Numbered from the stretch's first letter, positions 28,227 through 58,270 are shown. The stretch: DNA of 64,000 bases from Escherichia coli (GCF_009931435.1 NZ_CP043414.1), one strand, 5' to 3'. The notes: generated by a model from the sequence alone, not told the origin. Translations and numbers: made by a program.

Positions 28227-28395
28227 GAAGTTTGGTAGATTTTAGTGGGTATAGAGTTATCTTAAACATTTACCTTTTTAATCAATGGATTAAGTGTTCT
28301 TTAACATAATGGATGTGTTGTTTGTGTGATCCTGTAAAGTTGGTAGATTGTGACTGGCTTAAAAAATCATTAATTAATAATAGGTTATGTTTAGA
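28227..28395 (+). promoter_or_regulatory. CRISPR leader of the queE-proximal array
   Basis: AT-rich; AGTTGGTAGATTGT motif at 28339-28352, 43 bp before repeat 1, and a related TTTGGTAGATTTT at 28231-28243. Confidence 0.7.
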
Positions 28396-29218
28396 GAGTT
28401 CCCCGCGCCAGCGGGGATAAACCGGCGGTAAAATTGTTGCTACCGTCTGGCCCTTGCGAGTTCCCCGCGCCAGCGGGGATAAACCGACGGTGCAGGATCT
28501 GTAATTCTTGCTCGCGATGAGTTCCCCGCGCCAGCGGGGATAAACCGAGTTATCAGGATTATTCCCGCTCCGCCGCCAGGAGTTCCCCGCGCCAGCGGGG
28601 ATAAACCGTCGTTTTTGTGGTGGGAGTGTGCGGATTGGTAGAGTTCCCCGCGCCAGCGGGGATAAACCGGCTGACATTGTCAGCTATAACCTTACAATGT
28701 GGAGTTCCCCGCGCCAGCGGGGATAAACCGACGTCCCGCTATTTCCTGGACAGTGTGTAGCGGAGTTCCCCGCGCCAGCGGGGATAAACCGGCGGCGCTA
28801 ACGTGATAATCACGATCAATTATGAGTTCCCCGCGCCAGCGGGGATAAACCGCGGGCGTTAACCTTTTTATAGGCATCTTCCTTGAGTTCCCCGCGCCAG
28901 CGGGGATAAACCGGCTTGCAGCAGCTGCGCCAACATCTGAATACGGAGTTCCCCGCGCCAGCGGGGATAAACCGCTTTTTCCCGTGACAAGATCCAGTTA
29001 ACTGTTGAGTTCCCCGCGCCAGCGGGGATAAACCGCATCACTGGACGCCCATTTGAATAACTCACAGGAGTTCCCCGCGCCAGCGGGGATAAACCGATTC
29101 AGCAAATAGCGAATTTCATAAATATGATGTGTTCCCCGCGCCAGCGGGGATAAACCGTACGTTAAACGCCATCTGTCATGGGTCGTCATGTGTTCCCCGC
29201 GCCAGCGGGGATAAACCA
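28396..29218 (+). CRISPR. type I-E CRISPR array: 14 repeats, 13 spacers (32-33 bp)
   Basis: 29-bp repeat GAGTTCCCCGCGCCAGCGGGGATAAACCG at 28396, 28458, 28519, 28580, 28641, 28702, 28763, 28824, 28885, 28946, 29007, 29068; last two repeats (29129, 29190) are GTGTT variants and the final one ends ...AAACCA. Confidence 0.97.
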
Positions 29219-29671
29219 CCATATAACCCGTTATCTCTTTCTCAAGTTTTTATATTAGCTGTACTTGTAATAAGCAACATATCCACATAACACCTCATGT
29301 TCAAAATAGTTCCCCATGCCAGATAAGTTCACAATTATCGATACAAAAAATCAAATTTAATCAAAGTGTTATATGTATAATCCTTAAACCGTTAAGAAAT
29401 TTTAATATATTATTTTTTTAATATTAATTAATGCCTGTTAATTTTTTCTTTAGAATAACAGTGTATTTTTTAAGCTTGTTATTCATTGATTAAGTAATAA
29501 ATCTGGAAGTTTGTCTTTGTTTTGAGGCTAATGAGTGGTTTTACATAACCGCCTCTATACGCTGTTGATGAATAGTTCTTATGAATAAAGATATCCAGTT
29601 CATACTTTAAGTGAAAATTGATAAAGTGCGATTCGTATTGTCTTTTATTCTAAAGACATCGAGTGTAGTTA

Positions 29672-29809
29672 ATATTCCTTGTAAAAACAGGGATAAACCG
29701 AACTAGTTAAAGTTTTTATTATGTTCCCTGCATCAGCGGGGATAAACCGGACTTGTTATCATTTTTTAAGTTGTCGAACTTATGTTCCCCGCGCCAGCGG
29801 GGATAACCA
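29672..29809 (+). CRISPR. degenerate mini-array remnant (about 3 decayed repeats, one clear 32-bp spacer)
   Basis: TTCCTTGTAAAAACAGGGATAAACCG (ends 29700), ATGTTCCCTGCATCAGCGGGGATAAACCG (29721-29749), 32-bp spacer 29750-29781, ATGTTCCCCGCGCCAGCGGGGATAACC (29782-29808). Confidence 0.75.
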
Positions 29810-29855
29810 TTCAGGTATGTTCAGGCCGGGCAGTTTCCCGCCCGGCCTTCCTCAC

Positions 29856-52239: not shown

Positions 52240-52986
52240 ATGAGCCAATATCTGATTTTTCAGCTTCATGGGCCAATGGCATCCTGGGGCGTTGATGCAC
52301 CCGGTGAGGTGCGTCATACCCATGAACTGCCTTCGCGTTCAGCATTGCTGGGGCTGCTGGCTGCCGGGTTAGGGATACGGCGTGATGACACCGAATGCTT
52401 AAACGCGTTTAATCGCCACTATTCACTGGTGGTTTGCGCCAGCCGTAACCCGCGCTGGGCACGGGATTATCACACGGTCCAGATGCCAAAAGAGGTGCGT
52501 AAAGCGCGTTATTTCAGCCGTCGCGAAGAGTTGAGCGACCCTGATCTTCTAAGCGCGATTATCTCCCGGCGCGACTACTACACCGATGCCTGGTGGATGG
52601 TGGCCGTGGCAACAACAGCTGATGCGCCTTACAGCCTCGAACAGTTGCAGGAAGGTTTACGCCATCCGGTTTTTCCGCTTTATCTGGGGCGAAAAAGCCA
52701 TCCGCTGGCGTTACCCCTTGCGCCGTTACTGCTCGAAGGCAACGCGTCTGATGCCTTACGTACCGCATATCAACAGTATCAGGATCGTTTCCACGAACTA
52801 AAAGTCTCACTCCCGAAACTTCAGGATGAATGCTGGTGGGAAGGGGAACACGACGGCCTGGTCGCGAGCAAAATATTACGCCGCCGGGATGTTCCTTTAA
52901 ATCGTCAGCAGTGGCTGTTTGGGGAACGCACTGTCAATCAGGGGCCGTGGCTCAGCAAGGAGGAACCATGTACCTCTCAAGAATAA
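52240..52986 (+). CDS. casD: Cas5e/CasD
   Basis: 248-aa ORF MSQYLIFQLHGPMASWGVDAPGEVRHTHELPSRSALLGLLAAGLGIRRDD... (Cas5e N-terminal signature). Confidence 0.9.
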   Translation: MSQYLIFQLHGPMASWGVDAPGEVRHTHELPSRSALLGLLAAGLGIRRDDTECLNAFNRHYSLVVCASRNPRWARDYHTVQMPKEVRKARYFSRREELSDPDLLSAIISRRDYYTDAWWMVAVATTADAPYSLEQLQEGLRHPVFPLYLGRKSHPLALPLAPLLLEGNASDALRTAYQQYQDRFHELKVSLPKLQDECWWEGEHDGLVASKILRRRDVPLNRQQWLFGERTVNQGPWLSKEEPCTSQE

Positions 52987-53614
52987 CCTTACATACCGGC
53001 CAGCTTTCCCCAGCGCAGTTGCTGCATCTGGTGGATCGCGGTGAATATGTGATGCATCAGTGGCTGTGGGATCTTTTCCCTGGCGGCAAAGAAAGGCAAT
53101 TTCTTTATCGTCGGGAAGAACTCCAGGGCGCGTTTCGCTTTTTTGTCCTGTCGCAGGAACGCCCGGCGGAAAGTGAAACGTTCACCATCGAATGCCGGTC
53201 ATTTGCGCCGGAGCTGCGTACCGGACAATCCCTTTTTTTCAACCTGCGAGCGAATCCAACAGTCTGTAAAGCGGGTAAGCGCCACGATCTGCTGATGGAG
53301 GCGAAACGGCAGGTGAGGGGGCAGGCGGAAGGAAGTGATGTCTGGTTGCATCAACAACAGGCGGCGCTGGGCTGGCTGGCTGCGCAGGGAGAGAGAAGTG
53401 GTTTTACACTGCTGGATACCTCGGTCGATGCCTACCGACAACAGCAACTGCGGCGGGAAAATGCCCGGCAACTGATCCAGTTCAGTAGCGTGGATTATAC
53501 GGGGATGCTGACGGTCACCGAGCCAGGGTTATTTCTGCAACGTCTCTGCCTGGGGTATGGCAAAAGCCGGGCGTTCGGCTGTGGTCTGATGTTAATCAAA
53601 CCCGGAGCAGAGGC

Positions 53615-53618
<4 letters not shown>
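52968..53618 (+). CDS. casE: Cas6e/CasE, pre-crRNA endoribonuclease
   Basis: ORF track starts 52830; the ATG at 52968 with AGGAGG RBS gives MYLSRITLHTGQLSPAQLLHL...; contains FNLRANP and C-terminal glycine-rich GYGKSRAFGCGLM motifs. Confidence 0.88.
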
Positions 53619-54828
<1,210 letters not shown>

Positions 54829-54924
54829 GTTACCCGTTCTTTAAAAATAAGGAAATGTTTGAATTTAGTTGGTAGATTGTTGATGTGGAATAAAATTGTT
54901 TAAAAACAGATACGTATGCTTAGT
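54829..54924 (+). promoter_or_regulatory. CRISPR leader of the cas2-proximal array
   Basis: AT-rich 96 bp; AGTTGGTAGATTGT at 54868-54881, 43 bp upstream of the first repeat. Confidence 0.8.
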
Positions 54925-56050
54925 GTGTTCCCCGCGCCAGCGGGGATAAACCGTGGATTATGACGCCAGAGAGCTTCCTGTTTGCGTGTTCCCCGCGCCA
55001 GCGGGGATAAACCGCTGGCTAATAACATCCCACTGAATATTATTTCGTGTTCCCCGCGCCAGCGGGGATAAACCGAGGTGTGGCATGCGGGGAATTATGA
55101 TCCGGTAGTGTTCCCCGCGCCAGCGGGGATAAACCGTGACAACGGCCGGCCGCTCTTTTTGCGGTCATGTGTTCCCCGCGCCAGCGGGGATAAACCGATC
55201 ATCGGCATCATCTCGTGATACTCATCCGGCGTGTTCCCCGCGCCAGCGGGGATAAACCGCCCAGGCTTTACGTGAGCTGGCGGATGTGGCCGTGTTCCCC
55301 GCGCCAGCGGGGATAAACCATACGGTCAAGCGATATCAGGGGTACTGTGTCGTGTTCCCCGCGCCAGCGGGGATAAACCGGGCGCCGCATCTTTATCGTA
55401 AAGCATGTAAAGGTGTTCCCCGCGCCAGCGGGGATAAACCGACCGCTCACACCCAGACAAGCGCCACTAACGTGTGTTCCCCGCGCCAGCGGGGATAAAC
55501 CGAACGCCGCATCAGCTAAATACGCTAAAAAAATGTGTTCCCCGCGCCAGCGGGGATAAACCGCGGCTGATACTCAGGAGCAGGCCAGAGAGCGTGTGTT
55601 CCCCGCGCCAGCGGGGATAAACCGTACCACCTGTGTATTGAGTTACGTCGCCGGGGGTGTTCCCCGCGCCAGCGGGGATAAACCGGAGCTTCATCGGTGG
55701 TTCTGGGAGCAACGGGAGTGTTCCCCGCGCCAGCGGGGATAAACCGGCACAAGTGACTACATCAAGGATGGGGAATGGGTGTTCCCCGCGCCAGCGGGGA
55801 TAAACCGATTAACATTGCAATTGAATTGACGCGTATGAGGTGTTCCCCGCGCCAGCGGGGATAAACCGCAGGCAGCACGGCGGGTTTTGCCCGGATATTT
55901 GTGTTCCCCGCGCCAGCGGGGATAAACCGCAAAACCAATAGGTGCTTTCCACATTGCAGAAGTGTTCCCCGCGCCAGCGGGGATAAACCGCTCTCGGTTC
56001 TGGGGTACTGTTACCCATAACTGAGCTCCCCCGCGTCAGCGGGGGAACTC
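54925..56050 (+). CRISPR. type I-E CRISPR array: 19 repeats (18 canonical plus degenerate terminal), 18 spacers
   Basis: 29-bp repeat GTGTTCCCCGCGCCAGCGGGGATAAACCG at 54925, 54986, 55047, 55108, 55169, 55231, 55292, 55352, 55413, 55474, 55535, 55596, 55657, 55718, 55779, 55840, 55901, 55962; terminal degenerate GAGCTCCCCCGCGTCAGCGGGGGAACTC (56023-56050); spacers 31-33 bp. Confidence 0.97.
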
Positions 56051-56072
56051 CCAGCTCCCATTTTCAAACGCC

Positions 56073-57110
56073 TCATGACGCCTTCACCAGCTCCTTCACC
56101 AGCGGTAGCATTATCCGCATAACGTCACGGCAGCGACGTTCTATTCTTCCAGGAAGCGCCTTATCAATATGCTGTTGATTATCAAGCCTTACATCATGCC
56201 AGCTATTTCCCGCCGGGAAGGCCGGTGTTTTTGCGCGTTGCTGATAACCATCCTTATTTCCAAGATTCCAGTTGGTCGCCTCCACCGAAAGTACCGCAAT
56301 ACCGGCTTTGTCGAAAACTTCTGCATCATTACAACACCCGGTGCCTTTCGGATAGTTTTTATTCAAACCTGGATTTGTTGTCGCTGCAATCCCATGATTA
56401 CGCGCAATTGCCAGCGCTCGATCACGGGTTAATTTCCTGACAGCCTCTGGTGTATTTACACCACTATTAAAATACAATTTATCGCCAACAATTAAGTTAT
56501 CGAGATTAATCACCAGCAGCGTATTTTTCTTTTCGGTGTCACTCATCCGTTTGAGTAAATTCTCAGCGCCTAATTTTCCTTCCTCTTCGCCGCTGGTCGC
56601 CACAAATCGAATACCATACTCGGTAGGCGTATTTTTCAGGCGTTCAGCCAGTTCCAGCATGACACCTAAACCTGCGGCGTTATCATCCATTCCTTGTAAC
56701 GTTAGCCCGCCGAGATTGGCATCGGCGTCAGCATCGCTCAGCGGGGCGTAAGTATCCAGATGCGCCATAATGATGATCTGCTGCGGCGCTTTGCCTTCAT
56801 GAGCGGCAATCACCGTACTTCCCGTCACGTTATGCCAGCTCTTGCGATTATCGCGGGCGGTGTAAATATATCGGCTATTAAATGTCCGAATATCACTGCG
56901 ATAACCCATCTGTTGAAACTGTTGGCGAATATAATCGGCAGATAACATTTCTGCAGGAGTTCCGGTCATGCGTCCCGGAAAGAAAGTAGCAATATGTCGT
57001 GCCTGTGTATTAGCAAAATCACCAGGTTTAGGTGACGAGGCGTGTACGGGGAGAATAAAGCATACGCCGAGCGCCAGGGCAGCGGTACGGTGGCGCAATG
57101 CGGAAAACAT
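56073..57110 (-). CDS. iap: alkaline phosphatase isozyme conversion aminopeptidase
   Basis: 345-aa ORF MFSALRHRTAALALGVCFILPVHASSPKPGDF... (signal peptide, M28-type peptidase). Confidence 0.92.
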   Translation of the reverse strand: MFSALRHRTAALALGVCFILPVHASSPKPGDFANTQARHIATFFPGRMTGTPAEMLSADYIRQQFQQMGYRSDIRTFNSRYIYTARDNRKSWHNVTGSTVIAAHEGKAPQQIIIMAHLDTYAPLSDADADANLGGLTLQGMDDNAAGLGVMLELAERLKNTPTEYGIRFVATSGEEEGKLGAENLLKRMSDTEKKNTLLVINLDNLIVGDKLYFNSGVNTPEAVRKLTRDRALAIARNHGIAATTNPGLNKNYPKGTGCCNDAEVFDKAGIAVLSVEATNWNLGNKDGYQQRAKTPAFPAGNSWHDVRLDNQQHIDKALPGRIERRCRDVMRIMLPLVKELVKAS

Positions 57111-57361
57111 AGTGAGTCCTTAAATACCATGCAAATTTTTTTACCGCCATAGTATGAAACTGCCGCTGCGCTAAAACAATTTCAAATCTTCCTAAACGCC
57201 CGAAATCCGGTGCCTTAAGCACTTTTTGATATTAGCTTTGCCAAATCGTTATTCCGTTAAGGAACTACTCATTCTAATTGGTAATTTCATTCGTTCTCTT
57301 ACGCTCCCTATAGTCGAAACATCTGATGGCAAGAAAATAGCGGTATTGCAAAGGAACGGTT

Positions 57362-58270
57362 ATGGATCAAAAACGACTTACTCACCTGCGGCAACTGGAG
57401 GCGGAAAGCATCCACATTATTCGCGAGGTGGCGGCAGAATTCTCAAATCCGGTGATGCTCTACTCTATCGGTAAAGATTCCAGCGTCATGCTGCATCTGG
57501 CGCGCAAGGCGTTTTATCCGGGTACGCTGCCTTTCCCTCTGCTGCATGTTGATACTGGCTGGAAATTCCGCGAGATGTATGAGTTTCGCGATCGTACGGC
57601 TAAAGCCTATGGCTGCGAGTTGCTGGTGCATAAAAACCCGGAAGGCGTGGCGATGGGGATTAATCCATTCGTACACGGCAGCGCAAAACATACCGATATT
57701 ATGAAAACCGAAGGTTTGAAGCAGGCGTTGAACAAGTACGGTTTTGATGCCGCCTTCGGTGGCGCACGTCGTGACGAAGAGAAATCCCGCGCTAAAGAGC
57801 GTATCTACTCTTTCCGTGATCGCTTCCATCGCTGGGACCCGAAAAATCAGCGCCCGGAACTGTGGCACAACTACAACGGGCAAATTAACAAAGGCGAAAG
57901 TATTCGTGTCTTCCCGCTCTCTAACTGGACCGAGCAGGATATCTGGCAATACATCTGGCTGGAAAATATTGACATTGTCCCACTGTATCTCGCCGCTGAA
58001 CGTCCGGTTCTGGAACGCGACGGTATGTTGATGATGATTGATGACAACCGTATCGACCTGCAACCGGGCGAAGTGATTAAAAAACGGATGGTGCGTTTCC
58101 GTACGCTGGGCTGCTGGCCGCTGACCGGCGCGGTGGAGTCAAATGCGCAAACACTGCCGGAAATCATCGAAGAGATGCTGGTTTCCACCACCAGTGAACG
58201 TCAGGGGCGCGTGATTGACCGCGACCAGGCGGGATCCATGGAGCTGAAAAAACGTCAGGGGTATTTTTAA
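57362..58270 (+). CDS. cysD: sulfate adenylyltransferase subunit 2
   Basis: 302-aa [30 protein letters not shown]... Confidence 0.96.

Follow-up and report, generated by a model that had tools for sequence, protein, structure and literature searches.

The last repeat of the type I-E CRISPR-I (CRISPR2.1) array of Escherichia coli, an interrupted palindrome that faces the iap gene, is probably a relic: a repeat that came to mirror its own 5' end, drifted afterwards and now has, at most, a passive role at the RNA level. The copy described here lies in a 64,000-nucleotide stretch of E. coli DNA (GCF_009931435.1, NZ_CP043414.1), which was analysed as a whole and is called the window. The identity of the element is already known: it is the long-known degenerated or anchor repeat adjoining iap. 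The E. coli array next to this gene, the locus of Ishino 1987, is reportedly the first CRISPR array ever sequenced. The hairpin in the window is stronger than most of its E. coli counterparts, and represents a rare, well-preserved allele of an otherwise ordinary element. The biological weight of the unit is low; it is the end of a classic array, and the functional idea attached to it comes without terminator features or conservation. In its 3' third the repeat carries a mirror image of its 5' end instead of a decayed tail, which provides a hint at how terminal repeats arise or change.

The components of the locus are collected in table 1. Together with its terminal unit, the type I-E array extends from 54925 to 56050 on the + strand, and the repeats recur with a period of 60-62 nt, nearly always 61 nt. 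The genes upstream of the leader match the NCBIfam equivalogs of cas6e, cas1e and cas2e (E = 2e-82, 1.5e-114 and 3e-39, respectively). On the opposite side of the array, the protein encoded by the convergent ORF matches the NCBIfam aminopeptidase equivalog PRK10199 (E = 2e-211), and near-identical E. coli genomes annotate this gene as iap. The terminal repeat, GAGCTCCCCCGCGTCAGCGGGGGAACTC, consists of arm 1, GAGCTCCCCCGC (56023-56034), the loop GTCA (56035-56038) and arm 2, GCGGGGGAACTC (56039-56050). It is in register with the array, starting 61 nt after the start of the last regular repeat (55962-55990) and behind a 32-nt spacer. In a global alignment with the regular repeat, the first ~22 nt hold two to three substitutions and one inserted C, and the divergence falls in the last 8 nt. 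The repeat core CCCCGCNNNNGCGGGG is matched at 56029-56044. Register, degeneracy of the 3' end and the adjacent Cas6e, Cas1e and Cas2e genes place the unit among the terminal repeats of type I-E arrays. Degeneracy of the 3' end is nearly universal among terminal repeats (Touchon & Rocha 2010, PMC2886076). A preliminary description of the window had reported a near-palindromic, degenerate terminal repeat convergent with iap; its sequence and coordinates are confirmed, and the ORF bears out the 22 nt that separate the palindrome from the iap stop codon.

Table 1. Features of the window at the CRISPR-I and iap junction, and forms of the terminal repeat read in E. coli (dG, folding energy of the + or - strand RNA in kcal/mol).
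Feature or form	Position or genome	Strand	Description
cas6e	~52968-53618	+	upstream of leader
cas1e	53615-54538	+	upstream of leader
cas2e	54535-54828	+	upstream of leader
leader	54829-54924	+	96 nt; boxA-like GTTCTTTAAAAA at 54836-54847, promoter-like site at 54869-54896
CRISPR-I (CRISPR2.1) array body	54925-55990	+	18 regular repeats GTGTTCCCCGCGCCAGCGGGGATAAACCG, 17 spacers between
last, oldest spacer	55991-56022	+	32 nt
terminal degenerate repeat	56023-56050	+	28-nt interrupted palindrome, leader-distal, 19th repeat
gap, palindrome to iap stop	56051-56072		22 nt, conserved flank CCAGCTCCCATTTTCAAACGCC
C-rich, G-poor tract	56051-56130	+	31 C versus 13 G; antisense to iap 3' end; candidate Rho-loading (rut-like)
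iap, alkaline phosphatase isozyme conversion aminopeptidase	56073-57110	-	ORF, convergent with array; stop codon 56073-56075
perfect palindrome	N96 (L093)		GAGTTCCCCCGC-GTCA-GCGGGGGAACTC; dG -25.7 (+), -24.8 (-)
T4C form	window, 2013C-4282 (L096)		GAGCTC...; dG -21.4 (+), -24.8 (-)
T4C plus C>T in arm 2	L002		...GTCAGTGGGGG...; dG -19.5 (+), -19.4 (-)
T4C, one G lost	L091, L092, L097		C5 / G4; dG -14.3 (+), -17.7 (-)
T4 form, one G lost	L098		distinct from the form in L091, L092 and L097
K-12 type, 2x2 internal loop	L001, L083, L088		GAGTTCCCCCGCC(T/C)CTGCGGTAGAACTC; dG -13.3 (+), -15.8 (-)
further decayed	L084-L087, L090		GAATTCCCCGCCCCTGCGGTAGAAC(T/A)C; dG -5.6 to -5.3 (+), -12.4 to -9.4 (-)
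tenth form	L089		K-12 type, one C fewer

The CRISPR features of RefSeq/PGAP (L001, L002) stop before the last spacer and the degenerate repeat; automated annotation undercounts the array, missing one spacer and one repeat. The window also contains a second type I-E locus, CRISPR-II, with 14 repeats at 28396-29220 followed ~0.5 kb downstream by a two-repeat array at 29721-29810. Near-canonical repeats close both of these arrays. After the last repeat of the two-repeat array comes a separate GC hairpin, GGCCGGGC-agtttccc-GCCCGGCC, at ~29824-29847.

RNA of the + strand of the terminal repeat folds into a hairpin of 11 pairs interrupted by one C.A mismatch (-21.4 kcal/mol, z = -5.3), and none of 200 shuffled sequences folds as well. 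The - strand RNA has 12 pairs, one of them G.U (-24.8 kcal/mol, z = -5.8). The regular repeat folds at -15.2 kcal/mol. The core stem is the hairpin of the repeat itself, plus one C:G pair. The 7-bp stem CCCCCGC/GCGGGGG noted in the preliminary description is present, but it understates the pairing, which extends to 11 pairs on the + strand and 12 on the - strand. The outer pairs arise because the unit closes with AACTC, complementary to the 5' sequence with which it opens (GAGCT; GAGTT in relatives). The chance of at least four of five outer Watson-Crick pairs is P ~0.016, and for the perfect five of five in strain N96 it is P ~0.001, both calculated post hoc for a single locus. A search of 54500-57400 against Rfam gave no match at the terminal repeat and two chance-level hits, both elsewhere.

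The following course of events is proposed. (i) The first ~22 nt of the unit keep the repeat hairpin, the would-be 3' handle of the last crRNA. (ii) The last 6-8 nt would be dispensable in a terminal unit, because no crRNA follows. (iii) Rather than a decayed ATAAACCG, these nucleotides would be a mirror of the repeat's own 5' end (GAGTT / AACTC), and mirroring would yield the 12-bp interrupted palindrome. (iv) The mirror may have originated by template switching on the quasi-palindromic repeat, or by recombination between inverted copies of the repeat; the additional C in one arm and its partner G in the other would fit mirroring. (v) Subsequent drift would have proceeded through transitions, changes in homopolymer length and deletions, without compensation, leaving a nearly intact copy in the window. 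(vi) Any effect on RNA would be passive, the hairpin being at most a pause site and an obstacle to 3'-5' exonucleases. Pre-crRNA that reads through the hairpin, and that Rho probably ends in the C-rich tract, could be trimmed back to the hairpin and acquire a stable 3' end there. The 3' end of iap mRNA is possibly stabilized too.

A possible, although not a probable, alternative is that the hairpin has been kept as the Cas6e-binding 3' handle of the crRNA from the last spacer, with the extended pairing being incidental. Over its first ~22 nt the unit aligns with what enters a mature crRNA, and the stem is kept; the divergent last 8 nt would form only the 5' handle of a non-existent crRNA. This is the general pattern for terminal repeats (PMC2886076), and cas6e is present. 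The details of the hairpin are less favourable to a working handle: the stem has an extra base pair, the loop is changed from GCCA to GUCA, and with the outer pairing the usual cleavage site would lie within a duplex. Moreover, the 3' arm of the K-12-type unit is broken (GCGGTAG), and the last spacer is probably unprocessed in most E. coli, yet the tandem of spacer and repeat persists.

Comparison with other E. coli genomes shows how the unit varies. Homology to K-12 starts exactly at 56023, the first base of the terminal repeat. In K-12 the terminal repeat reads GAGTTCCCCCGCCTCTGCGGTAGAACTCC and runs into the same flank as in the window; in MG1655 the hairpin lies at ~2877641-2877668 of NC_000913.3. 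In all variants CCAGCTCCCATTTTCAAAC comes directly after the terminal repeat. The last spacer of the window is unlike the K-12-type last spacer. The window locus is a minority allele: over 55960-56400, an identity of 95% or more is reached by only ~20 of 5426 complete genomes, with K-12 at ~90%, and the window-type last spacer and terminal repeat occur in 27 of the 5426. The K-12-type tandem was found in 4241 genomes of this set, and a match of any kind in 4279. Among the latter, 625 fall in the band of at least 99% identity, where the matches listed are exact K-12; 549 differ at one to three positions, and 3054 lie in the 90-95% band. The sequences read from this last band (93.5%, 91.9% and 90.3%) are all of the decayed GAATT type GAATTCCCCGCCCCTGCGGTAGAAC. 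Folding of the commonest E. coli allele yields only -5.6 (+) and -12.4 (-) kcal/mol. A strong hairpin is the exception within E. coli, not the rule, because the population counts are dominated by K-12-type and decayed alleles.

The forms of the unit were taken from ~20 E. coli loci, a small sample picked without phylogeny, in which ten distinct forms were recognized. Hairpin energies across these variants span -25.7 to -5.3 kcal/mol for the + strand and -24.8 to -9.4 kcal/mol for the - strand. The window allele is one transition away from the perfect palindrome. Compensatory changes were absent from the ten variants, with none of the 12 pairs altered on both sides, and five pairs depart solely through unpaired combinations. 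Three of the four stem transitions become G.U wobbles when read in the iap sense but mismatches on the array strand, and decayed alleles preserve the iap-sense hairpin better. As a sign of constraint, this wobble bias (three iap-sense versus one array strand) was set aside; it is a weak, non-significant hint from too few events. The palindrome has been cleanly deleted between short direct repeats in strain 2020CK-00188 (L094; GAGTTCCCATTTTC) and is largely gone in Escherichia sp. MOD1-EC7003 (L007; GGGGGAGCTTCC); the array is kept in both. These junctions suggest loss through short direct repeats or hairpin-mediated excision. No sign of selection on the hairpin is apparent, because compensation is lacking, the energy range is wide, the commonest allele is weak, two genomes have lost the element and its relatives are decayed. 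The variation pattern thus points to a lack of selection.

Some strains have lost larger parts of the locus. In E. coli A20 and A37 (L091, L092), a truncated cas3 pseudogene is joined to one repeat, the window-type last spacer and the terminal repeat; the remaining cas operon and the array are deleted, and the terminal tandem is retained. CRISPR-less B2-type strains are homologous to the window only from ~56062, with a hok/gef gene in place of the array. In strains without CRISPR-Cas such as E. coli TUM14697 (L095), a toxin gene of the hok/gef family fills the cysH-iap interval, and homology to the window restarts only ~11 nt before the iap stop.

Almendros et al. (2014, PMC3903273) proposed that the terminal unit is a recombination anchor: being unlike the other repeats, it would keep the array from being lost altogether and make it easier to exchange CRISPR-Cas modules. 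The unit could not recombine with the other repeats, because its sequence differs: its 5' end is of the GAGTT type, like those of K-12-type repeats, whereas the regular repeats of the array start with GTGTT. Its retention in A20 and A37, although the cas genes are deleted and one repeat is left, also agrees with an anchor. The argument operates at the level of populations, however, and the palindrome is not needed for it; 2020CK-00188 and MOD1-EC7003 do without the element though the array is present. As an explanation of the palindrome, the anchor appears rather doubtful. The crRNA-handle and anchor ideas are compatible additions to the account of a mirrored and drifted relic repeat.

It is unlikely that the palindrome is a selected bidirectional transcript-end element, which would stop or stabilize both pre-crRNA and iap mRNA and insulate the array from antisense transcription. 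Such a role would be in keeping with a hairpin that is very stable on both strands, besides which no structure lies between the array and the iap stop, and whose - strand fold tolerates most observed transitions as G.U. Comparison of iap loci from 80 species bears on this reading in two ways. A repeat-like core within 150 nt of the iap stop is present in 13 of the 80 species. Among those read, from Salmonella, Citrobacter, Raoultella, E. albertii and another E. coli lineage, the array closes with an ordinary unit that retains no more than a 6-7-bp core stem, and its tail is decayed, for example to ATAAGC, ATAACC or ATGTCC. Conservation of the extended palindrome beyond E. coli was considered and rejected: the terminal repeats that adjoin iap in E. 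albertii, Salmonella, Citrobacter, Raoultella and Enterobacter do not have it. The other genera and the other arrays of the window lack such an extension, so the extended palindrome is, as far as these loci indicate, peculiar to the iap-proximal unit of E. coli.

The remaining 67 species have no array beside iap, and here a strong hairpin usually lies within 90 nt past the stop. A strict terminator scan of the 80 species was too crude and missed long-loop terminators; the energy of the best local hairpin was used instead. The best 44-nt segment past the iap stop has a median of -19.5 kcal/mol in these 67 species, versus -14.0 +/- 3.1 inside the CDS, and 34 of them lie beyond the 5th percentile of the CDS null. 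The iap 3' hairpin of array-less species is often an obvious intrinsic terminator, or a bidirectional one shared with cysH. True bidirectional terminators follow iap in other genera (for example, AAAACGCGAC...GTCGCGTTTT in L054 and L063). Since array-less species usually have a strong hairpin at this site, the terminal repeat occupies the usual place of an iap 3' hairpin; this is the best argument for a function at transcript ends.

The features expected of a terminator are incomplete. The GC-rich stem-loop of intrinsic terminators is found on both strands. No U tract adjoins the stem on either strand, the + tail being CCAGCUCCCAUUUUCA / CCAGCUCC and the - tail AGUUAUGGGUAACAGU / AGUUAUGG. On the + strand, a U4/T4 run begins 11 nt past the stem; on the - strand, the tail belongs to the spacer and differs between alleles. 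The combination of an A tract upstream and a U tract downstream is also absent (flanks CCCATAACT upstream and CCAGCTCCC downstream), and a consensus terminator scan did not call the terminal repeat on either strand. The hairpin is not expected to stop RNA polymerase, because it has no U tract. Judged by its sequence, the terminal repeat is neither an intrinsic nor a bidirectional terminator. The preliminary description had suggested a structural terminator; with no U tract on either strand and no call by the scan, that suggestion fails. The further proposal that the hairpin limits antisense transcription into the array does not follow without termination, which the hairpin alone would need to exert such an effect.

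Two other terminator-like sites were noted near the array. The + strand hairpin CGCCGGgaaggCCGGTG with a T5 run at 56211-56232 was examined as a dedicated array terminator and rejected, since its stem is unconserved in other E. coli. This hairpin lies inside iap antisense, ~160 nt past the end of the array, and the T5 is conserved as coding sequence. On the - strand, at 55556-55539, an antisense repeat hairpin is followed by ACACAUUUUUUU, and the adjacent spacer ends in A7. This is the sole terminator-like site within the array in the iap-sense direction, and it is ~500 nt past the iap stop.

A passive role in protecting RNA 3' ends is better compatible with the layout of the + strand. The 80 nt past the hairpin have a C/G ratio of 2.38 on this strand, compared with a 99th percentile of 2.29 for 80-nt segments of the window. 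This composition may be incidental, as the tract is antisense to the C-terminal codons of iap. Rho-dependent steady-state 3' ends of E. coli are found directly behind stable stem-loops that lack a U tract and have more C than G downstream (Dar & Sorek 2018, PMC6061677). The + strand layout of the terminal repeat is alike in all three respects, and to this extent favours a transcript-end element. Downstream on the - (iap-sense) strand, a C/G ratio of 0.83 is unlike that of a rut site and speaks against such an element. It is plausible that the hairpin serves as a passive block to 3' exonucleases, mainly for pre-crRNA, because the C-rich, G-poor stretch follows on the + strand. The RNA stabilizer likewise suggested in the preliminary description is plausible to this extent, and its interpretation is borne out in part. 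The parts of the Adams 2021 and TRS 2023 tables of E. coli 3' ends that were covered contain no iap, cas2 or CRISPR entry and no 3' end near NC_000913.3 2.8776 Mb, the K-12 homologue; with expression being low, this weighs only weakly against a transcript end. A full-text literature search returned nothing on Rho or bicyclomycin at iap-CRISPR.

The transcript of the array may itself be resistant to Rho. The boxA-like element of the leader has a counterpart, GTTCTTTAACAT (28296-28307, +), at the same relative position, upstream of array CRISPR-II. Both sites are on the array strand, ~90-100 nt upstream of the first repeat, and share the pattern GTTCTTTAA(A/C)A(A/T). Each has 10 of 12 matches to GCTCTTTAACAA, presumably the rrn boxA consensus, and the window-wide count of such sites, seven versus 4.8 expected, is not above chance. 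Their shared position agrees with that of the boxA elements that precede CRISPR leaders in Salmonella, where they render transcription resistant to Rho in a Nus-dependent way (PMC7665894). By analogy, the boxA-like elements suggest that the E. coli array transcript may resist Rho, and this counts against a transcript-end element at the terminal repeat. If both arrays are boxA-antiterminated, as their sequence suggests, what ends pre-crRNA beside a convergent gene becomes a real question. The lack of compensatory changes, the weakness of the majority allele on both strands and the loss of the element from two genomes likewise argue against a selected transcript-end element, as does the absence of U and upstream A tracts. 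Combining the two ideas, such that a template switch produced a mirror half-repeat whose intact form became a U-tract-free, bidirectional hairpin that protects 3' ends and insulates iap from boxA-antiterminated pre-crRNA in replacement of the iap terminator, is improbable. A relic repeat with a mirrored 5' end, subject to drift, thus continues to be the preferred reading.

The unit can be compared with several known systems. Quasipalindrome correction by intramolecular template switching is a mutational mechanism of E. coli. The terminal repeat is alike in being an imperfect palindrome whose flank became the exact complement of the opposite flank. Here, template switching would be a past origin that we infer, and recombination between inverted copies would give the same product. 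The hairpin of a type I-E repeat becomes an efficient terminator once a T8 tract is fused to it (Semenova 2015, PMC4499155). This engineered terminator and the E. coli terminal repeat share a GC-rich hairpin derived from the type I-E repeat; the former has the T8 tract, whereas the latter is without an adjacent T tract on both strands. The Rho-dependent ends described by Dar & Sorek were mapped, whereas the terminal repeat resembles them by sequence layout alone; unlike those ends, its iap-sense strand has no excess of C over G downstream, and the boxA-like element in the leader may counteract Rho. The closest relative is the anchor repeat of E. coli CRISPR2.1 (Diez-Villasenor 2010; Almendros 2014, PMC3903273), which has the same locus, the same position and the same flank to the iap stop. 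The common anchor alleles carry a 2x2 internal loop or weaker pairing, whereas the window combines another last spacer with an almost intact 12-bp palindrome.
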